Shown one piece after another: positions 18,408 to 48,737 of a stretch of 64,000 bases of DNA. The notes beneath the pieces were generated by a model, which did not search any database, was not told the origin of the DNA, and worked only from the letters and a program-made list of their open reading frames with translations. The translations under genes and the position numbers were made by a program. Origin of the DNA: Candidatus Aenigmatarchaeota archaeon (lineage in GTDB: Archaea; Aenigmatarchaeota; Aenigmatarchaeia; GW2011-AR5); the NCBI GenBank assembly GCA_039091535.1, contig JAWCLW010000003.1, forward strand, positions 2,183 through 66,182. Reading direction: 5' to 3'. Within the stretch, counting starts at the first letter, position 1. Each line of letters begins with the position of its first letter.

Positions 18408-20402
18408 TTATCTACTAATTCTAGAGACATGCCCCTCTTTATAAACTTTTATCGTATTTTCTACAAATGTGTCTATTTTTGGCTCATGAGAAACTATTAT
18501 AATTTGTTTTAAATTTAATTTTTCAATAACATCACGCATCCTTTCTAATTGATCTGTGCTAAATCCGTCTGTTGGTTCATCTAAAATTAATAAGTCTTTT
18601 GTCTTTATACCTTCCAATAAGATATTTACAACTTTATTAAGTGCAAGACGATACGCAAGTGCAACAGATGTACGTTCGCCACCAGAAAGATTAGCGTATT
18701 CTGTTTCGTATCCATTCTGCTCTATTATTGGGGTAAATTGTTCATCTATACGTACATTTAATTCATCACCCATAAGAATTGTAAACCATTCTTTGAAAAA
18801 TTTATTGAATTCTTGTTGTATACTATACATTACATGCTTTTCAATTGTTTCCATAAGATTTATAAAATGCTCATCAATCCAATTTATGAGCTCACCTATG
18901 TAATAACTACGATCTTTTTCTTTCTTCTTATTCTCTATTTCTTTTTTTAGGTTTGATATCATTTCATGCATATGTTTTAACTGTTCTTCTGTCCTTGAAA
19001 TATTTTTTTCAACAAAAAGTTTTTCATTATTAATTTTATCTAATTCTCCCTCAAGAGATTTGTATTTTATTTCTATTTTGCTGTAACTTTCCAACATTGG
19101 TTTGAGGGATAATATCTTCTTATTTAATTCATCTATATCATTTTTTATACTACTCTTTTCAACTTCTAATTTTTTCATCCAATTTATATAATCATTTATT
19201 GTTTTTTCAATTTGTGACTTTTTTTCGAGAGAATAAATATTTTCAAGAATTTTTTCTATCTTTTTTTCCATATCTGAAATATTTTTTTCTATTTCTTTGC
19301 ATTCATTTATTTTATTTTCTATGCGATTATTGAATTCATCCTTATTATATACTTTTTGCCCACAAACACCACACACGCCATTTTTCAATATTTCATTCAA
19401 TTTTTCAATTTCTTTCTTTATTGCACCATAAACAGAAATTGCATCAGATTTCTTTTTTTGCATCTCAGATAATTCATTCTTTAAATCATTAATATATCCG
19501 GTAACCATAAATTTTCTAAGTTCGTCTTGATATAATTTTATTTTTGTATTCACATCTTCTATATCTATGATAATTGTTTTTAGTCTTCTTTCTTTGATCG
19601 AGAGTTCAGATTCATAATGTATAACTTCACGACTTATCTTATTTAATTTTTCTATTTCTTCTTTCGCTATGTTCATTTCAGATTTTTTTATTTCCAACCT
19701 TTTATTCACATCCTCTAAAATTTTATTTTGTTCGATAAGCTTTTTTTCAGCATCAATCTTTTCTTTTTCTATTTTCTCTAATTCCAATAATTTATTTTCT
19801 AGATCCGCTATAGATATATCAAGCATTTTTTTAATAGATCTTAATTCTGTAAGAAACATTCTTGCATTGTTTCTTATAATCCCATATTTATCAATACCAA
19901 AAATTTTTCTAAGTACTTCAATACGTTCTTTGCTTAGAAGTATAGTTTTCATCTCTTCTTGTGGTGTATAAACTGTATAACGAAATATTGGCCTATTTTT
20001 CTTTATAGCATCTCTTGGATAGCCAAGTAATTCATATATTTTTTCTGTAAGTTCAGTTGGTGAAAATTCGCGTTCGATGCCATTAATCATTAACACGCCT
20101 GAATCCTGAACAACTCCTTTATTTCTTTTAAGCACTCTTTTTACTATTATATTTTTTCCATCGAGTTCAAATTCTAATTCAACCGAACCATGGTTCTTAT
20201 CGTGTCTTAAAAGATTTGTTCCATCAAGTTCACCTTTTCTTATGCCAAATAATGCAAAATCTGCTGCAAGAAGGATTGTGGATTTTCCAGAACCAACATC
20301 TCCAGAAAGTAATACAGAACCTCTTGGAAATTCTATTTTCTCATCAATATAACTTCTTATATTTTTCAATTTTATAAATTTCAAAATCATATCAAACACC
20401 AA
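18408..20402 (-). CDS. rad50: DNA double-strand break repair ATPase Rad50 (short coiled-coil form)
   Basis: Walker A GDVGSGKSTIL, zinc hook CGVCGQ mid-protein, signature LSGGERTSVALAYRLAL, Walker B LLILDEPTDGF, and D-loop/His VSHE. Only 664 aa. Confidence 0.9.
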   Translation of the reverse strand: MVFDMILKFIKLKNIRSYIDEKIEFPRGSVLLSGDVGSGKSTILLAADFALFGIRKGELDGTNLLRHDKNHGSVELEFELDGKNIIVKRVLKRNKGVVQDSGVLMINGIEREFSPTELTEKIYELLGYPRDAIKKNRPIFRYTVYTPQEEMKTILLSKERIEVLRKIFGIDKYGIIRNNARMFLTELRSIKKMLDISIADLENKLLELEKIEKEKIDAEKKLIEQNKILEDVNKRLEIKKSEMNIAKEEIEKLNKISREVIHYESELSIKERRLKTIIIDIEDVNTKIKLYQDELRKFMVTGYINDLKNELSEMQKKKSDAISVYGAIKKEIEKLNEILKNGVCGVCGQKVYNKDEFNNRIENKINECKEIEKNISDMEKKIEKILENIYSLEKKSQIEKTINDYINWMKKLEVEKSSIKNDIDELNKKILSLKPMLESYSKIEIKYKSLEGELDKINNEKLFVEKNISRTEEQLKHMHEMISNLKKEIENKKKEKDRSYYIGELINWIDEHFINLMETIEKHVMYSIQQEFNKFFKEWFTILMGDELNVRIDEQFTPIIEQNGYETEYANLSGGERTSVALAYRLALNKVVNILLEGIKTKDLLILDEPTDGFSTDQLERMRDVIEKLNLKQIIIVSHEPKIDTFVENTIKVYKEGHVSRISR

Positions 20403-21597
20403 GAATTTTTTTTACATTACTCTTTATTCTTTCTTCATATGTTGTATTTGTTTCACCTTCCATTTTTTCTTCCTTAAAGGTATTCATTAAATCTAAAATT
20501 ATTTTTTTTATTTCATTATTAGAAAATTTAGATAATTTGTAGGTATGCTCTGCTATCAATGTCTTTTCTAGTTCTTCAACTGTAACATTTGGTTTTATCT
20601 TAATTTCTTCGAATTCTTTTGTTGTTAGCATACTTATGTTTTTTTTAACAACCTTTGCACCTTTTTGATAAACTTTTGAATATATCGTCTTGAAATCTAT
20701 ATCAGATGGCTTACCATTTTCAAGCACCCCAGAAATCTTTAGCAAAAATATTTTATTTTTCAAATCCATATGCTCTATTTTATTTAATATCTCGTCTTCA
20801 ACACGCTTTACAGATTTTTTGTCAGCATTTATCTCTATTGTGACAACATCAATAATATTTAAATCAAACCAGTTGAGATTTATTTTACCATCATAATTCA
20901 CAAAATAAAAACCAGGTTTGCATTTTTCAAGCTCATCAAAGCTTGTTGGAAACAAAGCACCAGGATATACTATTTTGCCAAATTCTTCATCCCTTTCAAA
21001 TTTATGGTGTACATGTCCACCTGCATAATAATTGAAATTTTTTGGTAGAAGTGACAATGATATTGAGTCCATTTCTTTCAAATGTTGTGGTTTATATTCT
21101 GTTATTGCTGAATGAAAAACAAATATACTTAATCCATTATAATTTTCTGGACTCTCAAGACTTTCATAATAAGATTTTTCAAGACCACCTCTTCTACCTA
21201 ACATACCTGCAATCCTTGCACCACTTTTATCATTCACAAATTTTAGTTTCAATTTACCATCAACCTCAATGCATCTAGCAACATTTACTATAAGGCCTGC
21301 ATCCTCTAAAACAGATAGCATTGTTTTACCAGTAGGGGAAAAATCATGAGAACCAGGTATAGCATAAATATTTATTCCCGCATCTTTACATCTCTTTAGC
21401 CATGAAACAGCAAATCGCAAAATATCTATTGGAGGTATGCTTGAATCAAATAAATCCCCTGATATTATTATGAAATCTACAGCAGAATTTATGCATACAC
21501 TTATAGCCTCTTTAAATGCTAATAATGGATATTCACGCATATCTGGGTGATTATTCCATGAACCAAGATGCGGGTCAGCCATGTGTGCAAATCTCAT
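20392..21597 (-). CDS. mre11: DNA double-strand break repair nuclease Mre11
   Basis: Phosphoesterase motifs FAHMADPHLG, ISGDLFD, IPGSHD and GGHVHH. Overlaps rad50 by 11 nt. Confidence 0.9.
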   Translation of the reverse strand: MRFAHMADPHLGSWNNHPDMREYPLLAFKEAISVCINSAVDFIIISGDLFDSSIPPIDILRFAVSWLKRCKDAGINIYAIPGSHDFSPTGKTMLSVLEDAGLIVNVARCIEVDGKLKLKFVNDKSGARIAGMLGRRGGLEKSYYESLESPENYNGLSIFVFHSAITEYKPQHLKEMDSISLSLLPKNFNYYAGGHVHHKFERDEEFGKIVYPGALFPTSFDELEKCKPGFYFVNYDGKINLNWFDLNIIDVVTIEINADKKSVKRVEDEILNKIEHMDLKNKIFLLKISGVLENGKPSDIDFKTIYSKVYQKGAKVVKKNISMLTTKEFEEIKIKPNVTVEELEKTLIAEHTYKLSKFSNNEIKKIILDLMNTFKEEKMEGETNTTYEERIKSNVKKILGV

Positions 21598-21691
21598 TCA
21601 AAAACACTTCCTAAATTTTTTTTTGAAAGAAATGTACGCTTTGTGAAATATCTCATAAAGAAAAATAATCAAGAAAAATACTTAAAATAAA

Positions 21692-23206
21692 TTAATACTC
21701 TTCCCAATGCACCTTTCTTTTTTCTCTATTTTCTAAAATATCTTCAAATTTTGGTATACTTATAGGTATTGCGAATTTTGTGAAACTTGAAGTAACTATA
21801 GCTTCTCCTATGTCTAAACTTGCTATATTTCTATTCTCTTTTGATAAATCTTGAGCAGCACTTTCTATTACTGCATTTCTTTCTGATACAAGCTCTATCC
21901 CGAGTATTATCTTTGTATTCATGTTTGCAAGTATTTCTTTTGGTATAAGACTTGGTAATTGCGTTATAGCTATCAATCCAATATTAAATTTTCTACCCTC
22001 TCTTGCTATTGTTGTAAAAATATTTTTTCTTTCAAGTGAGTCTGCATTAAGAACACGTGGCGCTTCTTCTAATACAATAGAAATAATTGGTTTTTTATTA
22101 ATAATATTATCCATTTTATATTGCTTGTAATTATTAAATATCTCTTTTGCTATCATTGAACCTATCAAAATTTCTATTTCACTTGAAAGCATGGATGTAT
22201 CTATAATAACATTTTTGCCATTTTCAAGTTCAGAGCATATATCACTTATTGTTGTTCTCCCAGCATTTATATCAAAAACCCCAGTACATTCTAGTTCGCC
22301 ATCTATTTTTCTTATTCCGAGAATTACATTAAATTTTCTCTGTAAAACATTTAGTGTTTCTGGTTTTATATTTATCATTTCACATATATCGCTGTCTGCA
22401 AGTACAAGTTCACTTACCCAATTATCTTTATATTCATTGTAAAATAAATACATAGCTTCTATTTGGGCATCACTAAGATTCATAACATCGTCAAGGTGCC
22501 ATGGTTTAAGTTTTTCTATGTTTATAATTAATTTTCTAGTGCCTGGTAATGGATTTAGTGAATAATAAATACAGTTATAATCTTTTAAACCAGGTCCATT
22601 ACGTCCATAATATTCATCATGAGGATCGAGAATAAGAAATGAGCAAAAATCTTGCTTCATTGCAGATGCTGCCATAACTTTTACAAGGTTACTTTTCCCA
22701 CGTCCAGTTGTTGCTGCAATAAATACATGATGTTTAAGTGTATTTTTTCCTTGCAAAAATACATCGGCATTTATTATTTTTGAGCCTGAACGGATCTTCC
22801 CAACATATAATGCATCATATGGTTTTGATAAAAATTTCAAATCATTTTCTGTTATTGGTCTTATTTCAGAAAAAAATTCAGGTAGTTTTTTTGGTACCTT
22901 TGCGATACCATTTGAAACAGTAAGTAAAATCTTTAGACGCGCTAATGTATAATTTGATAGTTCTTTATCAAAAAAATCAAGGTTTTGATAGCCCTCAAGC
23001 TTCATACCAGCTATGAGCTCTCTTGTTGACTCTCCTATCTGACTACCATAAAGCAAATCAAATACCTCAAGAATAACATATGAATTTTGATCTATATCTG
23101 CAACAAAAAGATCACCAAGCTCTATTTCTTTTCCAGATTTTTGTCTTACAATTATTTCAGAAAAATTACCGCCTATAATCTGACCGACGATTTCCATTCT
23201 TATCAC
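21692..23206 (-). CDS. herA: HerA-type DNA helicase/translocase
   Basis: N-terminal barrel region ([14 protein letters not shown]), Walker [14 protein letters not shown], and Walker B-like SIVLEEAPR. 504 aa, in a cluster with nurA, mre11 and rad50. Confidence 0.85.
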
Positions 23207-23835
23207 CTGAAATATTTTAGCAGTTCATCAGGTTTATCTATAACAATATCTGCGTCTATTAATTTATTTTTATTTTCATACCCATATGAAACTGCTATAA
23301 TTCTTTTTACATGTGCACGTCTTCCGCATTCTATATCAATTCTTGTATCACAAACAAAATTTGTACTTTCTGGTTTTGAATCTAATTTTTTTATACATAA
23401 AAGCAATTGATCTGGATGTGGTTTAGGCTTTGCTACATTTACATCAACAATACAATCAAAAAAATTTAAGAGTTCATATTTTTTTAATATATTTTCTATT
23501 ACATCTTTGAAATTATTTGAGACAATACCAAATTTATAATTTTTGTGAAGTTCTTTTATTACAGAATCCATATTATTGACAATATTTATTTTATCCTTAT
23601 AGACTTTTGCTTCATTAGTAAATAATTCAGGAACATTTTTTAATTCATAATCATTAAAGCCAAGCTCCTTATAAACATCTTTCCAATATCTACCTGTAAA
23701 TTTTTCTATGAATTTTTCATAATCTTCAAATGGTTTCTTTCCAAACATCTTTAATATCTTATTGTTTATTTCATAATAATATCTAGAAGTATTTACTAGG
23801 GTACCATCAAAATCAAATATTATTACATTTTTCAT
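23203..23835 (-). CDS. HAD-superfamily phosphatase (phosphoglycolate phosphatase-like)
   Basis: Motif [13 protein letters not shown], motif II VSNN, and a late Asp motif region. The start was set to the ATG at 23835 ([11 protein letters not shown]), which removes the overlap with the nurA reading frame. The track ORF extends to 23946. Confidence 0.8.
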
Positions 23836-23839
23836 ATAA

Positions 23840-24910
23840 TCATCTGAAAATTTTGTTGAGTATTTCATGGGCATCTGATGCAGATATAAAATCTTCTTGT
23901 TTTTTGGTTTCTGATAATAATAATGCTCTGTGATATAACTTTTCATTTTCTGTTACTCTTGCAAGACTATCTGCATCTATAAGTCCAAAAGGATATCCTG
24001 GAAAACGAAAATCACAACTATTTTCTGCTAATGTTGCTATCACATCATTCACATCAATTTTTTTAAATTGTTCTTTCAATATTTCATATCTAAATACATG
24101 GTTAGAATTTGGATGCAATTTTGTTACAATAATCTCCGCCTTGTGGTCGGGTTGTTCTATATCAACAATTGGATAATAGTACCATTTTTTATTTGACATA
24201 ATAGCATTACCACGCTTTTTTAACACAGCTAAAAGACTGTTTCCTGTTGTTGTGAATAATGTTGATGTTTTTGCAAGACCTGAAAATATAACATTTTTTC
24301 TTATCGCTGCATCATAAACATCTTCTGAAAATATATGTTCATTTGTTACACCTGTTTGTAATGAACCATCCTTAACAATAATATCATCACAATCTAACTC
24401 ATTTTTTATAACATACTTTGCAATCTTCCATTCTGCAAATCTTCTTATAACATTAGATATTTTAGATATATCTACAATAAATATACCTTCTCTCAATGTT
24501 TGATCAAGCAAACTAAATGATAAATATTTTTCTTCTGGCAAAAATTCACTATAGTCACCCAACGGAAAGATTTCCGTTTTATATATTAATTCATTATTAC
24601 CAACCAATTTTACAATAGCGTAGAATTCTATCCTTGATTGCATTTGTGGCTTTATCTTTTTTACACCATCAAAAACATTAAAATATATGCGAATAAAATT
24701 TATTGAAAAATTTGGTGCAGATAAAATTTCAGCATTACCACCATCAACAAATGCTATCTTTCTATTTTTTTTTGATTCTAATATCTCATGAAAATTTTTA
24801 TTATCTAAAGGGATTGGCTTATACCTTTCGTCATGAAATTTTGGGTCACCATCTTCAAACTTTCTTATTTCACTTAATGAATTTGCTATTTTTTCAATTA
24901 CCCTTTTCAT
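23840..24910 (-). CDS. nurA: NurA-type 5'-3' nuclease
   Basis: 356 aa with NurA-like acidic motifs (IAFVDGGNAEI, IIVKDGSLQTG), in a cluster with herA, mre11 and rad50. Confidence 0.7.
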   Translation of the reverse strand: MKRVIEKIANSLSEIRKFEDGDPKFHDERYKPIPLDNKNFHEILESKKNRKIAFVDGGNAEILSAPNFSINFIRIYFNVFDGVKKIKPQMQSRIEFYAIVKLVGNNELIYKTEIFPLGDYSEFLPEEKYLSFSLLDQTLREGIFIVDISKISNVIRRFAEWKIAKYVIKNELDCDDIIVKDGSLQTGVTNEHIFSEDVYDAAIRKNVIFSGLAKTSTLFTTTGNSLLAVLKKRGNAIMSNKKWYYYPIVDIEQPDHKAEIIVTKLHPNSNHVFRYEILKEQFKKIDVNDVIATLAENSCDFRFPGYPFGLIDADSLARVTENEKLYHRALLLSETKKQEDFISASDAHEILNKIFR

Positions 24911-28002: not shown

Positions 28003-28367
28003 TGAAAAACCATAAAATGTACTTTAATTTCTGTGTTCAATTTTTTTCATTAATTATACATCAATTCATTCATTGTTCATAAGATGACAGACGGTTTCGT
28101 TGCCTCTAATTGTAACGATCTTTTTAATTTTATATTCACTATTGGTTACATGCTTGCAATAGCATATGCTCTGCACAAAACTAACACCACAACAGATGTG
28201 GATATTGCCCAAAATAGAAATTATTTTAGTCTATGATCAATGCAAACCCATCTATCCCAATTCTAACATACTTTGAACATTTATGTAGTTTGGCAATTTT
28301 TTTAATAGTTTTACTGTTTCGCTATTTTTTAATTCCTCCTGACTATATATAATCCCATACCAAAAAA

Positions 28368-28375
28368 TTTATATA
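28368..28375 (+). promoter_or_regulatory. TATA box in front of the structured RNA candidate
   Basis: TTTATATA preceded by an A-rich (BRE-like) stretch. It lies about 26-33 nt upstream of the first base of the predicted terminal helix (28401). Confidence 0.4.
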
Positions 28376-28400
28376 CTCTATTTTTTCATTTATTTTTAAC

Positions 28401-28594
28401 GGACAAATCGGTTGGCCTGGAAAAGGCTAGATTGAAAACCTCTACTGAACAACAACCCCTTGGGTTTGGCGACTGGACTATACCTCGCCATTCCTATTGT
28501 TCAGCAAGTTAAATTCAATCTCAAAGAAAAATACTCCGTGAATTCAGCTGAAAAGGGTTGATTCAGCTCTTGAAGGAGTTTCTTTACCGAGTCC
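28401..28594 (+). ncRNA. Structured RNA candidate of unknown class (about 195 nt)
   Basis: Local GC-rich island in non-coding AT-rich DNA. Terminal helix GGAC-AAA-TCGG (28401-11) with CCGAGTCC (28587-94). Helix CTGAACAA (28445-52)/TTGTTCAG (28497-504) encloses hairpin GGCGA/TCGCC (28468-72/28485-89). Helix ACTCC (28533-37)/GGAGT (28575-79) encloses AGCTGAA/TTCAGCT (28546-52/28562-68). Confidence 0.4.
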
Positions 28595-28766
28595 AGAGTG
28601 AGTTAAATGGTGTGCCCAAAATTAAAAAAAGGAAATTGTAGTAATACTAAAAAGCCATGTAAGGCAAAATATCATGTAAAAATGATAAAACATAAAAATT
28701 GTAAAAATTACAAATCAAAGAAAAAATAAATAGTAATCATGCTAATTCTAAGAACAATCAAAAAAT

Positions 28767-29528
28767 TTATTTGAATATTGATTTTATAAATTCAATTATA
28801 TTTCTTTCGTGTTTATATTCTATACCAATTAAGTTTGAAGCAAATTTTATAATCTCTTTACTTGCTGGCGATTTTGGGTGCGAAATAGTTATTGGAACTT
28901 TATTATGCAAACTCTTACTAACGTTTTTATCATAAGGTATAACAGATATTACTGGAAGACCTGTGAAATATTCTATTTCATGCTTTCTCATTTCGTATTT
29001 ATCTTTTCCAACCATATTAACAACAACACCTAAAGGTTTTGCATTAACTTCTTCTGCAATTTCATGACATCTTATAATATCCATAATAGATGGTATATGT
29101 GGTGTTGTTATATAAATTAGTTCATCGCTTGCCTTAATTGCACTCATAGCTTCTCTACCCAAACCGGGACTTGCATCTAAAATAACTAAATCGTTTTTTT
29201 CAGATATATCTCTTACAACATCTTTAAGTTTAGATATGTCAACTCCTTTTAGTTCATGCACAGATATAGATGCTGGTATGACTTTTAAGCCACTAAAATG
29301 TGGGTGAATAGAATCTACTACACTAATTTCTTTTCTTAACACTTTATTTATTGTTGTTGGACAATAATACATACCAAGATGAAGACCTAAATGTGATGCG
29401 GTAAGATTACAATCAACTACAGTAACACTTTTTTTGAAATGTTGTGAGAGTGCAGCGCCCAAATTTAGTGCAAATGTTGTTTTTCCAACACCACCTTTTC
29501 CAGAAATCACACTAATTATTCTTGACAT
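28767..29528 (-). CDS. minD: MinD/ParA-family ATPase
   Basis: Deviant Walker A SGKGGVGKTT with the start set at MSRIISVISGKGGVGKTT (29528), and Walker B LVILDASPG. The track ORF extends to 29561. Confidence 0.85.
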   Translation of the reverse strand: MSRIISVISGKGGVGKTTFALNLGAALSQHFKKSVTVVDCNLTASHLGLHLGMYYCPTTINKVLRKEISVVDSIHPHFSGLKVIPASISVHELKGVDISKLKDVVRDISEKNDLVILDASPGLGREAMSAIKASDELIYITTPHIPSIMDIIRCHEIAEEVNAKPLGVVVNMVGKDKYEMRKHEIEYFTGLPVISVIPYDKNVSKSLHNKVPITISHPKSPASKEIIKFASNLIGIEYKHERNIIEFIKSIFK

Positions 29529-29784
29529 CTTTATCACTTGTTTGCTTTTCTTTTTTGTCACTTTTTTTCAAAAAAGAAAAAATACCACCACCTTCCTTTT
29601 TTTTTAGAAATGGAAGTCCTGTTTTCTGATTTTCAATAACCTCAAAACCCTTTGGTAAGCTATTTATAGCATTTGTTGGATCTTTTGAAAAATAATAAAG
29701 AGTAACCTTTCTATTTGTTTTTGCATGCAACCAAAATTTTTGGCCATTTTTAGATTTATATACGTATGGTGTAAATATCCCCAT
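29512..29784 (-). CDS. Small conserved-looking hypothetical protein
   Basis: 90 aa: YVYKSKNGQKFWLHAKTNRKVTLYYFSKDPTNAINSLPKGFEVIENQKTGLPFLKKK followed by a Lys-rich tail. Overlaps the minD start. Confidence 0.45.
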   Translation of the reverse strand: MGIFTPYVYKSKNGQKFWLHAKTNRKVTLYYFSKDPTNAINSLPKGFEVIENQKTGLPFLKKKEGGGIFSFLKKSDKKEKQTSDKDVKNN

Positions 29785-29817
29785 AATTTATTTTTATCAA
29801 TATGAATATAAAAAGAC

Positions 29818-31101
29818 TTATGACTCGGTTTCAATCGCTCTTAAAAGTTTCGGCTTTTTTGTTTGTCTCCTTTTTATGAAAATATATAATAATATTAACG
29901 ATGCTATTAGTATTATTGTTATTATGAAGATATAAATTTCAATAGGTGGTTTTGCATACAAAAATATCGCTGTTGCGTGGGTCAATTGAAAAACAGAATC
30001 TTCCAAATATTTTTTCACTATATCTAATTCAATTCTAGAATTTTCATAATCGCCTTTTTCATAATATTTAATAGCTTCTTCTAATTTAGATTTTGCTAAA
30101 CTTAGGCTATTACTTGCTAATGTTATGTCAAAACCTTTCATGTGTGCTGATAAAATTTTATTTTCTATTTCTGTTATTAATAATTTATAATTTAAGATTT
30201 TTAGAATTATATCCTCTTTTATTGGTTTTTCTGTAGGTAATAAATTCAGTTCAATATTCTTTGATAGAGTAATCTCGTTAGTAATTATTTCAAGATCCAT
30301 AGTATATTGACCAGGTGGTGGATATGATGTGTTTAATGAAATTAGAAACAATGCAGTATCATTTACTGACAATCTGTTTATTTGTTTTGGATTTATATTT
30401 ATATTTACAAAGCTTGTTGTTGATACATATAATCTAAGATTGTGGACAGGTATTTCTCCAGTGTTATTTATTGTAATATTTATTAGTATACTTTGATTTT
30501 GATATAAATCTATATTATTAGGACAATATATTTCTAATTTTGGTATGCCTGCTATATATGGTTCTGAAATTACAATACCACCAGCACCAACCCCTACTGC
30601 TGAAACTGGCTGTGGTGGTAATGGTTGTGATGGATAAACAACATAAAAAATTCCCCACAACTCTGCTATTCTTGTTTCATAAGATACTCTTAGTTTTATG
30701 TAATATATACCGACTTCAGGCGGTATAAAAACAGTTTTATAACTTCTTTTCATTCCAGGATTTAAAATCACAGAATTATCAAAATATGTTGCTATGGGAA
30801 TGAGACTTCCATTTTGATAAAAATATATATACTCTTCTATTTTTGCTGTAAATGTTTTTGTTCCCGTGTTTGTAAATTCTGCTGTTATGTTTTGTGTTTC
30901 ATAAATTGTAATCTGTGGTCTATAAACAAAACCTGTTATTTTTCCTTCAAACTTTTCTTTTATACTTACATGAATATATTGCATTATAGAAAATCCAGTA
31001 ATCTTATGTACATAAGAATAGATCATAAATAGAACTATTAAAATAAATAAAATCAAAAAATATCTATCTTTATCTTTCATAATTCTTATTATGTTAAGCA
31101 A
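29818..31101 (-). CDS. Bitopic envelope protein with two Ig-like (CARDB-like) segments and a coiled coil
   Basis: N-terminal TM (YFLILFILIVLFMIYSY). Two beta-rich segments of the style ITAEFTNTGTKTF and ILINITINNTGEIPVHNLRLYV, separated by a PLPPQP linker. Helical region. C-terminal TM (IYIFIITIILIASLILLYIFI) plus KRRQTKKPK. Confidence 0.5.
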   Translation of the reverse strand: MLNIIRIMKDKDRYFLILFILIVLFMIYSYVHKITGFSIMQYIHVSIKEKFEGKITGFVYRPQITIYETQNITAEFTNTGTKTFTAKIEEYIYFYQNGSLIPIATYFDNSVILNPGMKRSYKTVFIPPEVGIYYIKLRVSYETRIAELWGIFYVVYPSQPLPPQPVSAVGVGAGGIVISEPYIAGIPKLEIYCPNNIDLYQNQSILINITINNTGEIPVHNLRLYVSTTSFVNININPKQINRLSVNDTALFLISLNTSYPPPGQYTMDLEIITNEITLSKNIELNLLPTEKPIKEDIILKILNYKLLITEIENKILSAHMKGFDITLASNSLSLAKSKLEEAIKYYEKGDYENSRIELDIVKKYLEDSVFQLTHATAIFLYAKPPIEIYIFIITIILIASLILLYIFIKRRQTKKPKLLRAIETES

Positions 31102-31687
31102 GTTTATATATAATAACAGAGATCAATAAAATTATAAAAATAGCAATAATGTAATTATTATCCTTCTGTTCATCGTTTTCTTTATCAGTTTCAATAATAG
31201 ATATATTATTTACATGTTCATTTTTTTCATTATAATTTTGTTTGTCCGTATCTATTATTAATCTAAATTCTTGTTCCTGCAAAAATGTTATCTTGTTTTC
31301 TGGTAGAACGATTTTAGCTATTATTGTAATGTTATATTGGCCCCATATAGCTCCAATTGGGAAAATTTTTATAAGAACAGGTGTGGCTGATATAACTTCA
31401 TTAGGGGATGGCAAAATAATATATTCACTTCCTGTTGTTCTATTCAAAAGAAATTTGTTTGGCTCTATAAAAATAGAAAAATTTTCAGGTACATCTTTTG
31501 CATATATTTCTATTTCGTAGGTATTATTTTCTCTATTCCAAAAAATTGCTTTGACTGTAACTGTTTCATTCTCTATAATTTTTATATAATTATTTCTTAT
31601 TGAAGAACCAATGCCAATTGCATGCGCATATGAAAAGAAAAGTATGAGTGCTATAAAAAAACTAAGGATTTTCACCATTTTTAACAC
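31094..31687 (-). CDS. Secreted, C-terminally anchored Ig-like protein
   Basis: Signal peptide (ILSFFIALILFFSYAHA), a single beta-rich domain with sequons, an acidic linker, and a C-terminal TM (IIAIFIILLISVIIYKLA). Overlaps both neighbours. Confidence 0.5.
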   Translation of the reverse strand: MLKMVKILSFFIALILFFSYAHAIGIGSSIRNNYIKIIENETVTVKAIFWNRENNTYEIEIYAKDVPENFSIFIEPNKFLLNRTTGSEYIILPSPNEVISATPVLIKIFPIGAIWGQYNITIIAKIVLPENKITFLQEQEFRLIIDTDKQNYNEKNEHVNNISIIETDKENDEQKDNNYIIAIFIILLISVIIYKLA

Positions 31688-34382
31688 CTGTTATTATAAT
31701 GGTCCCAGTGTAACGTCCAGCATAAATTGGGGGGACATTTAACCAATACCATGTTGTTATATTTGTGTTTTTGGTTACATTAGTCCTGATTGGAGTATAT
31801 GTATGTTTTAGCTCTTTTGATGTACTATATGAATTACTTACATTACTCCATGTTATGTTTCCAACACCAATAATAGAATTTAGAGTACTATTTGTTAAAT
31901 TAGTTCCTCTTATATAAAAATCTAGGTTGCAACTCCCAGGATTAACTGTTATATTATATTTGTTTTTATCGTTTCCGGGAGCTGGATTTTCTTTTGTGTT
32001 AGGATTTAATTCTCCAAAATCTATGTGAGACCATTGTAAATTAAAATCTATTGAACAAGAAAAGATAGATATAGATATATCATCTGTATTATTGCTTTGA
32101 ATTTCTTGATCAGAAGAATTAAACAAAACATCTATTCTCCAATCAGAACCTATGTCACCTGTGGCATTTATTATCCATGATAAATTGCATTGTTGATTCT
32201 TGTTTAATTCACCACAATCCTTTGTGGCATTTCTAGGTATTTCAAAAATATAGAATGGTTTATCGCCTTCTGTAGTGTTTATTGGCGTGTCTGTTTCTGG
32301 AGAAGAAAAATTATATCTTATTGTTCCATTTACATTTCCACAGTTTCCACCTCTGCATATGACAGTTGCATTTACTATGAATGTATTATTTTGTATAATA
32401 TCTATTGTTGAAAGTGTTGGTGGATATGTTATATTAACTTCTAAATACCTGAAATAATTTATATACACCCATCTTATTTCTGAAACATTCATATTTCCTA
32501 CAGAATCATTTGCATAAACTTTGAATGTATAATTTCCATTTACAAGATTTGTTTTATTTTTATACCAATTAAATTCATTACCGTCCATCGTCTCGTTTGT
32601 ACCATTCCACTCTAATTGAATCCAGTCTGGGATTTCGGACAATGTGACATTTATGTATGTATTGTTTACATCTATTGTTTCGTTATTTGGTGTCGGAGCA
32701 ACAAAGATTATTTCAGGTGGTATTGAATCAATAGAAAAATTTACTGATGCAGAAGCATTATTATTGTTTGTATCATTTACAAAAACGAATAGTTCATGCC
32801 AACCTTGTCCAACATCGATTGTAATATTTACACATCCCGGTATAGTAATATTTTCACCACCATCTATTGAATATTTACATTTATCTATTTCTATGTTATC
32901 GGTTACTGTATAATTTAGAGGGATAATTGTGGTATTATATGTAACATTAATTGGTAATTGGATTTCAATTGTTGGTGAGATTTCATCAGAATATAAATCA
33001 TATGCAAACCAAAATGGCAATGGTGCTGAATTATCTGTTGTTGCAGATAATGAGGCTGTTAATGTTCCAGTTGATGGTATTCTTGTAAATGCTGTCGAGC
33101 CACAACCAGAACCATCCCACCTATTTCCTATAAGATCATCAACAATATCACCTCTTAGTATAAAAGAATCCTCATTATCTGGAGAAGGACCAACGATAAC
33201 AACTTGATCTACATCATCTGTATTCGACCCACCAACGTCTGCCGTTATACCAGTAAAGCCGGATGGAGTCCAACATACCACATCTTGTGTCAAGGCATTG
33301 CTATCTGTGTAAGAGAATAATGCATGGGATGTTGTCCTTGTCCATGTTGTTCCAATAGTTTTTCCAGTTGTTGTTTCTATAGTACCATCTATAGGATTTG
33401 TTGCAGTAGTTGTAAAACCTTCTGTTGAGCCGTCTGCTTTCCAAATATATAAATGTGCGTCATTTTCAGAATCAGCGATTGCCATAGAAATCCTGTTACT
33501 TGACGGATCTGAAGCAAGTTCTATCCATAGATTATTACCTGCACCAGTATCAGGTCCTGCTGTATTTGTTGTATCCCAGCCTGTTATTGGGTTATATTTT
33601 CTATAATAGGTTGTTCCATCTAATGTTGTTAGGTCAAAAACTACAAGACCATTCCCACTTATACTTTCCCATACTATTCCAAACGCTGGTTGTGCTGTTG
33701 CAGCTAAGGTAGATTCAGAAATTGTTATGTTATGGATCCAAGTAGAACCATTCCATCTTGCAACACCAAATCCCGTAGTACCAGAAACACCAAGAAGCAT
33801 ATCGTCTCCTCTTGGTACAAGTTTTATCCATAAAGGTACTCCGATACCATCTAACATTATACTATTGCTTGCTCCGGGTGAAAATGTTGAACCGCAGGCT
33901 GGCGTTGGTGACCAGCCTGTACCATTCCATAAACAATAATAGGCATAATTAGTTGTTGGATCATCTGCAAAAACAATCATGGCTCTTCCTGTAGTATTTT
34001 CATAAGCAATATCAAATGCCATTTTATTTGCATTTGTTGTACTTGTTGCGCCTGTTAGGGTTCCTATTAACGACCAATCACTTTGTTGATCACAACCATC
34101 AACACATCTTAAGACGTCTAATCTCCCATCTGCTTTTAAATGAGCTACAAATTTTTCATTTTTTTTCCATGTTGCCACTATTTTTGCAAAATATATTTGT
34201 GATGAAGATGTAGAAACAGTTGAATATTCTATTCCATTTGAACTTGGATATGTATAATCTCTAACTTTTAAAACACCAGGATTAATTGTGTCACCATATA
34301 TTATTGTACCATTTGCTGCATATACTATACCTTGTAAAATTACAAAAATAGATATGAAAATTAGAAAGCATTTTATTCTCAT
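31662..34382 (-). CDS. Large secreted surface protein (repeat beta-propeller-like N-half, sequon-dense Ig-like C-half)
   Basis: 906 aa with signal peptide MRIKCFLIFISIFVILQGIVYA. Recurrent W-containing blade-like motifs (YCLWNGTGWS, VARWNGSTWI, YRKYNPITGWD, LYIWKADGST, VVCWTPSGFT, GNRWDGSGC). Several dozen NxS/T sequons in the C-terminal half. Confidence 0.6.
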   Translation of the reverse strand: MRIKCFLIFISIFVILQGIVYAANGTIIYGDTINPGVLKVRDYTYPSSNGIEYSTVSTSSSQIYFAKIVATWKKNEKFVAHLKADGRLDVLRCVDGCDQQSDWSLIGTLTGATSTTNANKMAFDIAYENTTGRAMIVFADDPTTNYAYYCLWNGTGWSPTPACGSTFSPGASNSIMLDGIGVPLWIKLVPRGDDMLLGVSGTTGFGVARWNGSTWIHNITISESTLAATAQPAFGIVWESISGNGLVVFDLTTLDGTTYYRKYNPITGWDTTNTAGPDTGAGNNLWIELASDPSSNRISMAIADSENDAHLYIWKADGSTEGFTTTATNPIDGTIETTTGKTIGTTWTRTTSHALFSYTDSNALTQDVVCWTPSGFTGITADVGGSNTDDVDQVVIVGPSPDNEDSFILRGDIVDDLIGNRWDGSGCGSTAFTRIPSTGTLTASLSATTDNSAPLPFWFAYDLYSDEISPTIEIQLPINVTYNTTIIPLNYTVTDNIEIDKCKYSIDGGENITIPGCVNITIDVGQGWHELFVFVNDTNNNNASASVNFSIDSIPPEIIFVAPTPNNETIDVNNTYINVTLSEIPDWIQLEWNGTNETMDGNEFNWYKNKTNLVNGNYTFKVYANDSVGNMNVSEIRWVYINYFRYLEVNITYPPTLSTIDIIQNNTFIVNATVICRGGNCGNVNGTIRYNFSSPETDTPINTTEGDKPFYIFEIPRNATKDCGELNKNQQCNLSWIINATGDIGSDWRIDVLFNSSDQEIQSNNTDDISISIFSCSIDFNLQWSHIDFGELNPNTKENPAPGNDKNKYNITVNPGSCNLDFYIRGTNLTNSTLNSIIGVGNITWSNVSNSYSTSKELKHTYTPIRTNVTKNTNITTWYWLNVPPIYAGRYTGTIIITGVKNGENP

Positions 34383-34520
34383 AATAGAATTTATATTAAT
34401 CCAAACTTTTATACATTAATAATTATCTGAATAATTTGTTTTACAAATGAAATAAAAAGCTATTAAAACTAAAAAATATTATAATTAAGCACAAATAAGA
34501 ATCTATGAAGGAGAAATAAT

Positions 34521-35120: not shown

Positions 35121-35678
35121 TTATACTTTTCCATTTGAATTAATATTATTTTTTTCAGCAATATTTTTTTTATCTTTTTTTGTTTCTTCGAACATTTTTT
35201 TTAACTCTTCTCTTCGTGCACCAAAATATTCTTCAAAATGCGATGTTGTTCTCAATAATTTTGTTCTTGATTTTTTTTCACTTTTTATCAAACCACGTTC
35301 TTCTAGTTCTTTTACATATTCATATGTTCTATTTCCAATTACCTTAACAATATCTGATTGACTTATTGGCTCATGATAAGCTATAATAGAGAGTACACGT
35401 AATAATCCACGTGATAAATCTGCATGTGGAGTTAGATGTGAAACTTTGCTTGCATATTCACTTTTGACAACAAGCTTGAATCCACCAACATCTGACAATT
35501 TTATACCAAATTCATTACTGTTATATTTTTCTTTTAGTGTTGAGAGTAATTTTTCAATTTCTTCTTTTTTCATTTTTAGATTTTTTTCTAACTCCTGTAT
35601 GGATAATGGTTCATCCGTTGTGAATAACATGGCTTCAAGTAGTGCAAGTTTATTTATTTGTTTTTGCTCATTATTCAT
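35121..35678 (-). CDS. scpB: Segregation and condensation protein B
   Basis: ALLEAMLFTTDEPLSIQEL and a second wHTH (LRVLSIIAYHEPISQSDI). Overlaps scpA by 8 nt. Confidence 0.85.
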   Translation of the reverse strand: MNNEQKQINKLALLEAMLFTTDEPLSIQELEKNLKMKKEEIEKLLSTLKEKYNSNEFGIKLSDVGGFKLVVKSEYASKVSHLTPHADLSRGLLRVLSIIAYHEPISQSDIVKVIGNRTYEYVKELEERGLIKSEKKSRTKLLRTTSHFEEYFGARREELKKMFEETKKDKKNIAEKNNINSNGKV

Positions 35679-36354
35679 TGGCTATCACTTCTTCTTTTGT
35701 CTCATCTTTTATTCTTATATAAATTTCCTTGAAAAATTCTTCCTGCTCACATATTATTTTACCACGTTGTGAAAGATAGAGGAGCGGAATGAATGTTTCA
35801 ACTATTTCTTTTCTTTTCCATACAGGAACAAGATCTGAAAATTTTATACTATAATGTTTTACTATTTTGTTGAATATGTTTTCTATTCTTGTTTCTATAT
35901 CCTCTTCTTCACCTATTAATGTTTCAACAGCACGTCTCATCCTTATTCGTTTTTCTTCCTTACGCTCTTTGAATTCCATAACTTTACTTAATGCATTTAT
36001 CAATTCATTTAATGTAACTTTTCTTGTTGGCTTCCTCAGAATCGGTGGTGATAATGGCGGAATATTTTCTATGTTAATTGGTGGTATCTTTTCTGCTTCT
36101 ATCCTTTTTTGTTCTTCCTCTTCTAAAAGAATTTCACATTTCATTCTTAGCAAGATTGCTGATATTAGAATAAATCTTGCAGGTATACGAAAATCAAAAC
36201 TTTTCAATCTTTGTAGATAAAGCATGAAGGCATCTGCCAATTTTACTAAATCTATAGCTAATGGATCCATTCCCTCTTCTGCAACTATCTCTGTCAAAAC
36301 TTCTTGCCAATCACTTCCAAGAATAATTGTCTGGATTACTTTTGCTTCATTCAT
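35671..36354 (-). CDS. scpA: Segregation and condensation protein A (kleisin)
   Basis: MDPLAIDLVKLADAFMLYL N-terminal kleisin motif and a C-terminal winged-helix region. Lies between smc and scpB. Confidence 0.8.
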   Translation of the reverse strand: MNEAKVIQTIILGSDWQEVLTEIVAEEGMDPLAIDLVKLADAFMLYLQRLKSFDFRIPARFILISAILLRMKCEILLEEEEQKRIEAEKIPPINIENIPPLSPPILRKPTRKVTLNELINALSKVMEFKERKEEKRIRMRRAVETLIGEEEDIETRIENIFNKIVKHYSIKFSDLVPVWKRKEIVETFIPLLYLSQRGKIICEQEEFFKEIYIRIKDETKEEVIANE

Positions 36355-36371
36355 TATATTTCACCATTTCA

Positions 36372-38780
36372 TTATCCCTTAGGTAATTCTATACCGAAGA
36401 CCTTTGAGACACCATCTTCCATTGAGACACCAAACACCTTGTCTGCCTCTGCTGTTGTTATATCATTGTGCGTTATAACTATGAATTGTACATCCTTTGA
36501 ATATTTCTTTATGAGATTTGTTATTTTTTTTGTGTTTGCTTTATCCAATGCAGCATCTACTTCATCTAAGACATAAAATGGTGCAGATTTATATTGCATT
36601 AATGCAAAAAGAAATGCAAGCGATGCCAACGTCTTTTCACCACCAGACATCGAATCTAAATTTAAAACATTTTTTCCACTTGGACTTGCTTCTATGATTA
36701 ATCCAGAATCTATGTTATTTTCTACCTCTAATCTTATTGTTCCAAAACCATTTGTTAGGTCTTTATAAATCCTTGTGAAATTTTCTGCTATACCATTTAA
36801 TGTTTCCATGAATTTATCACGTCTCTTTTTTTCAACCTCTTGAACAATCTTTAATATTGCATCCTTTTCTTCAATTAATTTATCTAATTTTTTCTTTAAT
36901 TCTTCAAATTCAATATTTATTGTCTGATACTCCTCTATTGCTTTCATGTTTACAGGACCAAGCTTGTTAATTTCAATTATGTATTTTTTTACAAGTTCTT
37001 GCAATTCATCTTCTGAAAGCTTCAAAAATTCTTTTACATCTTTATAATCTTCAAATTCTAGTTTTAGATTTGATAATGTTGCTTCAAGATGCGCCTTTTC
37101 TATTTTCAACTTTGTTATGTTATTTTGCAGAACTATTCTTTCTTCGTATATTGTTTTTCTTTTGTTTCTATAATCTTCAATAGTTTTTTCTATTTCTGAT
37201 TTTTCTTTCTGCAGTTTCATAACATCTTCTGATTCTTCTTTTTCTAATTTTTTAACATTCTCCAACTCTTTTTCAAGTTTTTCTATTTCAAATATCAATT
37301 TTTTATTTTCATCCTCTAATTTTTTTATCTCGTTTGAATGTATAGCATGTTTCTTTTGATAAAAACCACCTATCATTGCTCCTGATATCTCTATAAGGTC
37401 ACCATCAAGTGTTACAATTCTGAAGCCCGGGATCTTTTTTGCGGTATCTATATCTTTTACGACTAGAGTGTTTCCAAGAACATACTCCATTGCTGGATAA
37501 TATTTTTTATCAAATTTTACCAAATCAATCGCATATCCTATTATATCACCTTTGTATTGTTTTTTCTTTTTTCCCTTTATTTTATTTAATGGTAAAAATC
37601 TTGCTCTTCCTATTTTATTTTCCTTGAGATGTTTTATACAAAATGAAGCTACATCATCTGTAGAAACAATAATGTCATTTTTATGTTTGCCTATTGCAAC
37701 ATCTAATGCTATTTCATATTTTTTTGGTATTTCTATAAGGCTTGAAACAGTCCCATAAATTTCATCGTGTTTAAGATTTAATATCTCTTTTATTACCGGC
37801 TTCTCAAAATATATACTTTTCAAACGTTGAAGCTCGCGTTCGTTTAAATCTATTTTGTCCTTTTTTCTTAATATTTCCATTTGAAGAGAATCAATTTTTT
37901 TCATTATTTCATAATTTCTCGATCTTTTAATTATTTCATCATTTATTTTCTGTATTTTTTTCTCTTTATCTTCTAATTCTGTTTCTATTGTTCTGAACTC
38001 TTTTTCGAGTTTATCAAATTTTTCTGTATTTTCTCTTATATCTTTGTCTAATATTTTCATTTTTTCTTCTGTATTATCTAATCTTTTTTTAATAAGAGAT
38101 GCTTTTGCCCTCTTTAATTCTTCACTTAGTTTTTGATATTTTTCTGCATTTTCTTTTTCTTGCTTAAGTCTAATAACAAGTTTTTGTTTTTCTGCAACAA
38201 CAATCATGTTTTCCCTTACACGTGTTTCAACTTTTTCTAACTCTTTTGTTGCCTTTTCACGTTTTTCATCAAATTCCTTTATACCAGATATTTCATCTAT
38301 AATTTCTCTTCTTTCGAGAGGAGACATCTCTATGATTTTTGTTACATCACCTTGCATTATTATGTTATAACCTTCTGCTGACAGATTTGCATAAGATAAT
38401 ATATCAAGAATTTTTGATCTGGTTACTGTCCGGCCATTGAGTTTATAAATTGATATCCCATTTCTACTCACCCTTCTCATAATCTTGATTTCTTTTTCTC
38501 CAGGTATTTTATTATCATTATTATCTAAATATAATGATACTTCACAAAATTCAGCAGGTTTTCTATTTTTTCCACCATTGAAAATAAGATTTTGTAGTTT
38601 TTGTGCTCTGATGCTTCTTGCAGATGTTGTCCCAAGTACAAACATAATTGCATCTATTATGTTTGATTTCCCTGATCCATTTGGGCCTGCGATCACATTG
38701 AAGCCTTCTGGAAATGGTATTGTCACTCTATTTCCAAATGACTTAAATCCATATAATGTTATTCTATTAAGACGAACCAT
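36372..38780 (-). CDS. smc: Chromosome segregation ATPase SMC (short-arm form)
   Basis: Walker A GPNGSGKSNIIDAI, hinge (IYGTVSSLIEI...GRARFLPLNKI...TLDGDLIEISGAMIGG), signature SGGEKTLASLAFLFAL, and Walker B FYVLDEVDAALD. Only 802 aa. Confidence 0.95.
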   Translation of the reverse strand: MVRLNRITLYGFKSFGNRVTIPFPEGFNVIAGPNGSGKSNIIDAIMFVLGTTSARSIRAQKLQNLIFNGGKNRKPAEFCEVSLYLDNNDNKIPGEKEIKIMRRVSRNGISIYKLNGRTVTRSKILDILSYANLSAEGYNIIMQGDVTKIIEMSPLERREIIDEISGIKEFDEKREKATKELEKVETRVRENMIVVAEKQKLVIRLKQEKENAEKYQKLSEELKRAKASLIKKRLDNTEEKMKILDKDIRENTEKFDKLEKEFRTIETELEDKEKKIQKINDEIIKRSRNYEIMKKIDSLQMEILRKKDKIDLNERELQRLKSIYFEKPVIKEILNLKHDEIYGTVSSLIEIPKKYEIALDVAIGKHKNDIIVSTDDVASFCIKHLKENKIGRARFLPLNKIKGKKKKQYKGDIIGYAIDLVKFDKKYYPAMEYVLGNTLVVKDIDTAKKIPGFRIVTLDGDLIEISGAMIGGFYQKKHAIHSNEIKKLEDENKKLIFEIEKLEKELENVKKLEKEESEDVMKLQKEKSEIEKTIEDYRNKRKTIYEERIVLQNNITKLKIEKAHLEATLSNLKLEFEDYKDVKEFLKLSEDELQELVKKYIIEINKLGPVNMKAIEEYQTINIEFEELKKKLDKLIEEKDAILKIVQEVEKKRRDKFMETLNGIAENFTRIYKDLTNGFGTIRLEVENNIDSGLIIEASPSGKNVLNLDSMSGGEKTLASLAFLFALMQYKSAPFYVLDEVDAALDKANTKKITNLIKKYSKDVQFIVITHNDITTAEADKVFGVSMEDGVSKVFGIELPKG

Positions 38781-48622: not shown

Positions 48623-48737
48623 GCTGGGATGGCAGAGCTTGGTCCAATGCGCCAGCTTGGAGAGCTGGTATGCGTCATAGAATAATGCATTTGGTGTATC
48701 GACGTTGCATGCGGGAGTTCAAATCTCCCTCCCAGCG
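48623..48737 (+). tRNA. tRNA-Ser (GGA) with an insertion in the long variable arm
   Basis: Acceptor GCTGGGA/TCCCAGC plus G73. Class II D arm GCA-GAGCTTGGTCCAA-TGC. Anticodon stem CCAGC/GCTGG with loop TTGGAGA. T arm GGGAG-TTCAAAT-CTCCC. The variable region is 44 nt, versus about 16-20 expected. Confidence 0.8.

Follow-up and report, generated by a model that had tools for sequence, protein, structure and literature searches.

MinD-family ATPases of Haloferax position archaella and chemosensory arrays (bioRxiv 10.1101/2020.04.03.021790; PMC11588486), and in Haloferax volcanii one of them, MinD2, is co-transcribed with the small protein HVO_0596 (PMC11588486). FleN/MinD genes (arCOG00589) also accompany archaeal type IV filament loci and immunoglobulin (Ig)-rich adhesins (PMC4858521; bioRxiv 10.64898/2026.04.22.720090), and archaeal MinD paralogs have been described as generalists whose genes often stand beside those of unrelated membrane or intracellular proteins (PMC4858521). 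Here, we analyze a cluster of five genes (A, B, C, D, and minD) in a 64,000-nucleotide stretch, hereafter the window, from a Candidatus Aenigmatarchaeota archaeon (GenBank assembly GCA_039091535.1, contig JAWCLW010000003.1, positions 2,183 to 66,182), in which three envelope proteins are encoded with a small protein and a MinD ATPase. The analysis points to an envelope module in which MinD and D would act through the cytoplasmic tail of C on where, or in what number, A-B-C complexes occur, a reading whose chances we put at about even. A MinD-like ATPase near archaeal surface-structure genes is already on record, which makes the idea a variation on something known rather than an entirely new one; what is unusual here is a cargo of Sec-exported Ig-like proteins that lacks filament machinery, encoded with a small partner of a new type. 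A literature search found no publication describing the cluster.

The Haloferax proteins MinD4 and MinD2, which position envelope-associated machines and not the divisome, share the TIGR01969/arCOG00589 subfamily with the MinD of this locus, and the MinD2-HVO_0596 pair recalls D-minD in that a small protein, in Haloferax one of unknown function, goes with the ATPase. In contrast to Haloferax, the cargo here would be Sec-exported bitopic and secreted Ig-like proteins rather than a type IV filament motor, and D precedes and overlaps minD, whereas the Haloferax genes do not lie within a surface-protein operon. FlhG/FleN, TadZ/CpaE, and BcsQ-BcsR, which place flagella, Tad pili, and cellulose synthase, offer a second comparison, in that a MinD-like ATPase is encoded in the operon of the machine being placed; BcsQ is moreover preceded by, and complexed with, a partner of about 60 amino acids (aa), BcsR. 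The BcsR-BcsQ arrangement resembles D-minD in gene arrangement only, and unlike all three of these systems, the cargo here comes without a secretion motor or synthase. Among surface-layer (S-layer) proteins, Sulfolobales SlaA is large and unanchored, while SlaB consists of beta-sandwiches, a coiled coil, and a transmembrane (TM) anchor. The present cluster is alike in that the gene of a large unanchored glycoprotein adjoins that of a type I membrane protein with beta-sandwiches, a helical stalk, and a C-terminal TM helix; it differs in that no sequence or profile similarity to SlaA/SlaB was detected and that the N-terminal region of A varies between species. We know of no MinD in SlaAB operons.

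A sequence-only reading of this DNA had described five tightly packed minus-strand open reading frames (ORFs) between 28767 and 34382, and the ORF map contains all of them at these coordinates.

34382..31662, minus strand: gene A, 906 aa (ORF map)
31687..31094, minus strand: gene B, 197 aa (ORF map)
31101..29818, minus strand: gene C, 427 aa (ORF map)
29784..29512, minus strand: gene D, 90 aa (ORF map)
29561..28767, minus strand: minD, longest ORF from a GTG, 264 aa; 253 aa from ATG 29528
29785..29817, minus strand: C-D spacer, 33 nt
34383..34520, minus strand: intergenic region between A and the thymidylate kinase gene, which is divergent; TATA-like, AT-rich boxes precede the A start codon

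The A/B overlap (31662-31687), the B/C overlap (31094-31101), and the 33-nt gap are likewise exact for the longest ORFs. The start of B is probably ATG 31678, which would give a 17-nt overlap with A, and that of C is probably ATG 31080, since the public gene call is 420 aa long, which would replace the 8-nt overlap with a 13-nt gap after B. For minD, ATG 29528 (MSRIISVISGKGG) is the probable start, since the TIGR01969 alignment covers the long ORF from residue 14 on; D and minD would then overlap by 17 nt. These revised starts shift details only, and the genes are tightly packed either way.

The conservation of this arrangement carries most of the argument. When one genome per species of GTDB r232 was scanned with a pattern, 33 loci emerged, each of them from Aenigmatarchaeota or an archaeal metagenome-assembled genome (MAG), and synteny was counted over the 27 loci with close D homologs, 26 of which were testable. 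In 25 of the 26, the end of gene C precedes D by 0-46 nt, the exception (L030) having a block of about 7 kb inserted between the two, and MinD follows D on the same strand within about 1 kb, again in 25 of 26: at 0-45 nt in 21 loci and after one intervening gene in L007, L010, L011, and L016. Genes A and B lie directly upstream in 16 loci and are inverted downstream of MinD in the same four loci that carry the intervening gene. Three long metagenomic contigs with D homologs present A-B-C-D-MinD in unchanged order and orientation, and the orthology of all five genes was confirmed by tblastn. The packing is not a matter of chance, because many relatives keep the five orthologs in the same order although the proteins are only 30-60% identical. 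The linkage proposed from the single locus is accordingly a conserved one, with a qualification on its extent: the inversion of A-B in four loci makes C-D-MinD the invariant core, so the five-gene unit stands for its C-D-MinD part and gives way for the separable A-B pair. Flanking housekeeping genes differ between loci, whereas the envelope genes stay, and the module is lineage-specific to Aenigmatarchaeota, a narrow phylogenetic range.

Most relatives embed the five genes as half of a cluster of about 10-11 genes that includes a second MinD paralog and a winged helix-turn-helix (wHTH) protein. This second module lies directly upstream or inverted and encodes small Ig-like envelope proteins (u169 and u250), a 70-aa winged-helix protein, a CarboxypepD_reg-type envelope protein of about 770 aa, and a second MinD that overlaps the end of the envelope gene, so that the MinD-envelope pairing occurs twice in relatives; a tblastn search did not find the second module elsewhere in the window. 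L007, L010, and L011 have an in-frame fusion of the winged-helix protein with the second MinD (in L010 at 2457-3404, minus strand, a 315-aa wHTH-MinD). This fusion recalls the link of FleN with the transcription factor FleQ and, by analogy with type Ia ParA and FleN-FleQ, would link the second MinD to DNA binding or gene regulation. The small upstream protein u70, considered as a possible D paralog, was ruled out since it is a wHTH protein. Moreover, a distant archaeal MAG with 45% GC (L038 1-5900) encodes a D-like 86-aa protein together with three Ig-like envelope proteins and a MinD whose tail is amphipathic, all in rearranged order.

Some of the related loci carry further genes. L038 also encodes a Lys/Glu-rich coiled-coil protein of 601 aa. 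In L010 (8281-8757, plus strand), a 158-aa polytopic membrane protein with a HEFGH motif, a possible intramembrane metalloprotease judging by this motif, lies between D and minD, with equivalents in L007, L011, and L016. The insert of L030 (740-8000) holds a RelE/ParE-like toxin, a PIN-like protein, two large ATPase genes, and a nucleotidyltransferase-type toxin-antitoxin pair, and from its gene content it looks like a mobile or defense island that splits the conserved core.

Three short segments of the core are central to the reading of C, D, and MinD as a working group, two of them in MinD and one in C.

29478..29501, minus strand: deviant Walker A motif GKGGVGKT of MinD, read from the translation
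28770..28805, minus strand: C-terminal amphipathic helix of MinD, RNIIEFIKSIFK, last 12 residues
29821..29874, minus strand: cytoplasmic tail of C, KRRQTKKPKLLRAIETES, 18 residues

The identification of the last gene as a deviant-Walker-A MinD ATPase is borne out by an intact GKGGVGKT, found as SGKGGVGKTT at residues 9-18 of the 253-aa form with the signature lysine present, and by a TIGR01969 (minD_arch) score of 226 bits against a cut-off of 201.75, which places the protein in the archaeal MinD subfamily (arCOG00589). The bacterial minD_bact model gave 92 bits against a cut-off of 212.9. Its closest solved relative is MinD-1 of Archaeoglobus fulgidus (1HYQ, E 1.8e-46), followed by 1G3Q (E 1e-32) and 1ION (E 1e-30), and each of these Archaeoglobus or Pyrococcus MinD structures is matched over nearly the full length. 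The C-terminal helix is a predicted membrane-targeting sequence: its helical hydrophobic moment is 0.80 (0.70-0.89 in three orthologs), with the 95th percentile for 11-mers of the window's SMC protein at 0.63 as a reference, and tails of like kind end the protein in 30 loci.

The product of gene D is small, basic, and predicted to be cytoplasmic; five strands make up its beta domain (about residues 6-64), and its tail (73-90) is disordered. In an AlphaFold2 (AF2) model built from 26 homologs, the predicted local distance difference test (pLDDT) score is about 90 at residues 11-60, with strands at 8-10, 16-24, 27-33, 47-51, and 58-62. All of the named proteins among 56 D homologs belong to Aenigmatarchaeota. 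The MinD-linked subfamily ends in KKK-x-GGG-Φ-F-x-x-F-KK followed by polar residues (alignment A1), present in the window protein as GGG-I-F-S-F-L-K-K; this tail resembles a short membrane-targeting segment (hydrophobic moment 0.44-0.54) and is absent from stand-alone members of about 60 aa, which end at LKKK. A profile search of the domain against 1.84 billion representatives returned 472 cluster representatives at E <=0.001, mostly stand-alone proteins of 55-70 aa with the signature Y-x-Y-x-N-x-KG-x-x-YYLH…LYYFSK…LP-x-GYEV-x-EN-x-x-TGLP-x-LKKK and in a few cases the C-terminal domain of a larger protein. The partners of distant fusions (coiled coil, nitroreductase, zinc finger, and DUF2188) give no consistent clue. 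No Pfam family covers the domain in any family member scanned, and Foldseek searches of the D model against the PDB and BFVD returned nothing at E <=0.001. The profile produced only a marginal PH-domain match in the PDB (1wgq, E 0.012), which is a weak lead, and DUF1996, the sole Pfam/NCBIfam match, was rejected at 18 bits, below its cut-off. Two tail-less family members are found downstream of a methionine aminopeptidase gene (L036 7995-8177) and an enolase gene (L040 777-977).

Protein C supplies the third element of the core. It is bitopic, with TM-like segments at residues 12-35 (an N-terminal signal or anchor) and 381-399, and consists of beta-sandwich domains followed by a helical stalk segment and the C-terminal TM helix. 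It belongs to the CARDB family (PF07705, 26.5 bits against a Pfam cut-off of 22.7), and its homologs carry CARDB in 12 of 21 cases and NPCBM_assoc in 8 of 21; where a source is named, it is Aenigmatarchaeota (23 of 23), at an identity to C of only 35-47%. The C family profile (A4) found nothing in the PDB. Beyond the membrane, the tail consists of a basic cluster, then (R/K)P(K/R)LL(R/K), then an acidic end, with the motif following the TM helix in 30 of 30 loci and the A4 consensus reading RRKKxKRPKLLRxxxExET, in which P, L, and L are near-invariant. The tail is as conserved as the folded domains of C, a degree of conservation that would make sense only with a binding partner in the cytoplasm.

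The earlier description of three envelope products with signal peptides or TM anchors agrees with the N-terminal hydrophobic segments found in A, B, and C and with the C-terminal TM helices of B and C. Their extracellular location, as judged from composition, is marked by N-x-S/T sequons at 2-3 times the expectation (40, 6, and 7 in A, B, and C), whereas in a check of seven cytoplasmic proteins from the window all lie at or below expectation. Protein B has TM-like segments at 1-28 and 175-197: its signal peptide is followed by some 130 aa of beta-rich ectodomain and an acidic linker, and beyond the C-terminal TM helix hardly any cytoplasmic tail is left; its N-terminus (…SYAHA/IGIG) resembles a Sec type I signal on inspection. 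It has no Pfam or NCBIfam match, and its orthologs adjoin A in relatives. Protein A carries a hydrophobic segment at residues 1-25, 15 Cys, and its 40 sequons against 18 expected, and its N-terminus (…QGIVYA/ANG) on inspection also resembles a Sec type I signal. It is probably a secreted, heavily N-glycosylated protein with an N-terminal signal peptide and without a C-terminal anchor, and it can be divided into three parts.

32988..34313, minus strand: A head, beta-propeller, residues ~24-465 (AF2 and Foldseek)
32463..32975, minus strand: A middle, Ig-like spacers, residues ~470-640 (weak Pfam matches and homology)
31665..32462, minus strand: A base, residues ~640-906, cluster-specific conserved C-terminal region

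The head (residues 24-465) was modeled in the full-length AF2 prediction as an all-beta propeller in which most 10-residue blocks have a pLDDT of about 85-96, a fold of the AAL/AFL/RSL type (six- or seven-bladed). In Foldseek searches of the PDB, its top matches are the six-bladed fucose lectins AOL, AFL/FleA, RSL, and AAL (E 1e-7 to 1e-5; an E of 1e-7 at probability 1.0 was recorded against AOL, AFL, FleA, RSL, and AAL), followed by the generic propellers of LGI1-EPTP, integrin alpha, and sialidases. A lectin function of the modeled head is a lead, and such a lectin-like propeller fits an attachment role. Proteins of different build, one of them labeled Woesearchaeota, share this domain of about 470 aa at 43-68% identity, which points to a shuffled, exchangeable binding domain common to DPANN lineages. 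The DPANN surface proteins with propeller heads of this kind (P0232-P0242) are 600-1230 aa long and have C-terminal parts of other kinds (beta-helix or Ig repeats).

The middle part of A has Big_13 and Y_Y_Y Pfam matches below threshold at residues 592-636 and is homologous to the Ig-repeat proteins P0243-P0245, with low AF2 confidence in this region and, in the full-length model, throughout residues 467-906. The part of A that is conserved with the cluster is only the C-terminal 270-340 aa or so: tblastn with the A proteins of relatives aligns only 31665-32684, and the base alignment (A2, 20 sequences) has a mean column identity of 62% and invariant Cys. The A proteins of relatives range from 445 to 945 aa with a highly variable N-terminal part, and a homolog search with full-length A was dominated by the head domain and returned one ortholog of matching architecture. 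The A2 profile found no relative of the base in the PDB, and a profile-profile comparison of A2 with A4 showed no relationship between the A base and the C family.

From the observed gene order and its conservation, the domain content, the topology signals, the conserved tails, the intact ATPase motifs, and the propeller fold, we infer a set of protein contacts, an ATP-dependent membrane cycle, an adhesive role, and a placing or assembling function that would combine as follows. A, B, and C would be exported by the Sec route into a membrane-anchored, glycosylated complex, in which B and C supply the C-terminal TM anchors and A might dock by its conserved base and present its exchangeable head, the lectin-like propeller probably binding a partner cell or glycan. 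On the cytoplasmic side, MinD as an ATP-bound dimer would bind the membrane through its C-terminal amphipathic helix, with D as a dedicated MinD partner whose own Phe/Lys-rich tail may keep it at the membrane. MinD and D would jointly engage the RPKLL(R/K) tail of C and so set the site at which, or the number in which, A-B-C complexes are assembled or clustered. A functional link of this kind is suggested because C-D-MinD persists through deep divergence and rearrangements, because the short cytoplasmic tail of C is conserved, because the MinD-envelope pairing is duplicated in the second module, and because the D tail is specific to the MinD-linked subfamily.

Several points weigh against the envelope module as proposed. 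Genes can stay adjacent in small, compact genomes even when no function joins them, and one locus, L009, has no MinD downstream of D. Protein D is without a recognizable relative of known function, and its family is mostly not linked to MinD, with the tail-less members in L040 and L036 adjoining the unrelated genes for enolase and methionine aminopeptidase. On the outer side, the docking of A on B and C is an architectural guess with the base modeled at low confidence, and the lectin resemblance of the modeled head may be generic beta-propeller similarity, given a TM-score of about 0.5 on the target and an identity of about 12-16%.

A more specific form of the proposal holds that D-MinD is a new membrane-patterning pair, analogous to MinD-MinE, that positions a lectin-headed adhesion complex through the RPKLL tail of C; we offer this tentatively and consider it rather doubtful. 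As in the E. coli pair, a membrane-binding deviant-Walker-A ATPase is predicted with a C-terminal amphipathic helix, and D, like MinE, would be a partner of about 90 aa with a short Phe/Lys-rich segment of its own that is reminiscent of membrane targeting. In contrast to MinD-MinE, D is all-beta with a disordered tail, no MinE homology was detected, and MinC is lacking. Scans of Pfam and NCBIfam gave no match of D to MinE or BcsR, and D, with its predicted all-beta fold, does not belong to a bacterial MinCDE system in these scans; no MinC-like gene was present in the cluster or in the related loci with listed genes. With the BcsQ equivalog model TIGR03371, MinD scored 44.1 against a cut-off of 157.85, and with the CpaE homolog model 52 against 154. 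The archaeal Dip oscillator was considered as a relative and ruled out as GTPase-based.

The transcription signals bear on how tightly D and minD are tied to the envelope genes. The cluster promoter region is likely 34383..34520, and no promoter room exists between A and B, B and C, or D and minD, so a single transcript of all five genes is likely from this layout. Within the C-D spacer, TTTTTATATT occupies -32 to -23 relative to the D ATG, a spacing right for an archaeal TATA box and a leaderless mRNA, and it may be such a box inside the cluster. Many relatives have AT-rich elements about as far from D, and none is present in the GC-rich L009, where the C stop abuts the D ATG. In an AT-rich genome such as this (window GC about 29%), a TATA-like match is weak evidence, and an additional internal D-minD transcript from the box upstream of D is conceivable. 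A separate promoter and transcript for minD, which the sequence-only reading had named as a finding that would count against it, has no place outside the D gene; what the locus does allow is a transcript of D and minD together.

This possible D-minD transcript is one reason to weigh an alternative in which MinD and D act as a general spatial organizer of the division site, the nucleoid, or other cargo, with the envelope proteins as independent neighbors. The generalist character of archaeal MinD paralogs (PMC4858521) and a D domain family that is mostly not linked to envelope genes speak for it, as does the housekeeping nature of the window flanks: Pus10, ribosomal protein L21e, and an RNA-polymerase subunit, all archaeal housekeeping genes, on one side, and thymidylate kinase, ScpB, ScpA, and SMC on the other, with SMC-ScpA-ScpB (35121-38780, minus strand) immediately upstream. 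A Rad50-Mre11-HerA-NurA cluster (18408-24910, minus strand) also lies about 4 kb from the MinD-surface-protein cluster, and since neither it nor SMC-ScpA-ScpB is conserved in related loci, no link to chromosome segregation is implied. Several features of the related loci speak against independent neighbors: the 0-46 nt C-D spacing is kept in 25 of 26, L009 leaves no promoter room between C and D, the housekeeping flanks vary while the envelope genes stay, and in L038 the association has outlasted a rearrangement. Conservation of the cytoplasmic tail of C, the second MinD that is likewise tied to an envelope gene, and the D tail specific to the MinD-linked subfamily argue in the same direction, and we regard a general organizer as unlikely.

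The search for filament genes bears on the next comparison. The claim that this is not a known archaellum or type IV pilus locus was upheld: no Pfam match to a FlaI/PilB-type ATPase, a FlaJ/TadC platform, or a prepilin peptidase was found in the 25 window ORFs scanned (including every ORF of at least 300 aa but one of 338 aa, with no match), and type IV filament genes were likewise not found in the neighborhoods of about 16 kb around 39 related loci (query-set alignment and Pfam lists), including L010, which was read ORF by ORF. The signals of A, B, and C are, on inspection, of Sec type with A-x-A-like ends and not class III (prepilin) signals. Both results render it distinctly improbable that the cluster assists or regulates a type IV filament machine encoded elsewhere, with A as its adhesin and MinD as a FleN/TadZ-like regulator, a view that draws on the FleN/MinD (arCOG00589) genes accompanying archaeal type IV pilus loci and on one subsystem that pairs a MinD-like ATPase with large Ig-rich adhesins. 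Subsystem 4G and the clade 1/2 loci do resemble the cluster in combining a FleN/MinD ATPase, a large Ig-fold adhesin-like protein, and membrane accessory proteins; they are defined by a secretion ATPase, platform, pilins, and class III peptidase, none of which was found here.

Very unlikely, finally, is that A, B, and C are S-layer or S-layer-anchoring parts of a SlaA/SlaB-like kind with MinD guiding lattice insertion, since the parallel architecture (a large secreted glycoprotein beside smaller type I membrane proteins with beta-sandwiches and a helical stalk) is opposed by the MSTP-like beta-sandwich type predicted for S-layer proteins of Aenigmatarchaeota (bioRxiv 10.1101/2024.05.28.596244, a preprint), by the lack of any S-layer family match for A, B, and C in Pfam and NCBIfam, and by the 445-945 aa range and variable N-terminal part of the A proteins of relatives, which are unlike a lattice-forming protein. 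Clear homology of the envelope proteins to a characterized S-layer or pilus system, another outcome against which the original proposal had been set, did not appear in Pfam, NCBIfam, or PDB sequence and profile searches. By these family and profile criteria, the cluster is not a Min (MinCDE), type IV filament, BcsRQ, or known S-layer system.

Two further observations concern RNA in the window. Downstream of minD, positions 28003-28766 form a stretch of 764 nt without an ORF of at least 60 aa, in which a GC-richer segment of about 200 nt (~28400-28595, minus strand) has a multi-branched predicted fold with a minimum free energy of -70.6 kcal/mol (z -3.45; 0 of 200 shuffles as stable). The stretch gave no match to Rfam at a permissive threshold, to tRNA, or to related loci, and the structured segment may be an unannotated non-coding RNA; in relatives, the position downstream of minD is occupied by a gene for a two-TM coiled-coil protein of 140-161 aa. 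At 48623-48737 (plus strand, 115 nt), Rfam detected a complete tRNA at 50.8 bits (model positions 1-71) where ARAGORN found no tRNA in the window, probably an intron-containing archaeal tRNA.

How DPANN archaea build or place host-attachment structures is largely unknown, and the targets and partners of archaeal MinD are known only for the motility machinery of Haloferax. This locus shows the whole candidate chain in one place, from the ATPase and its small putative partner to a membrane adaptor with a cytoplasmic motif and an exported cargo with an exchangeable head. It presents a compact, phylum-wide candidate in which C-tail binding, membrane binding, and ATPase stimulation can be tested with purified components. 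The analysis also flags a widespread family of basic beta-domains of about 60 aa, with 472 cluster representatives, no Pfam match in the members scanned, and no known function. If the envelope module holds true, it would give a host-dependent DPANN archaeon a localized attachment site without type IV filament machinery, and in relatives the second MinD with its wHTH protein would couple the apparatus to gene expression.

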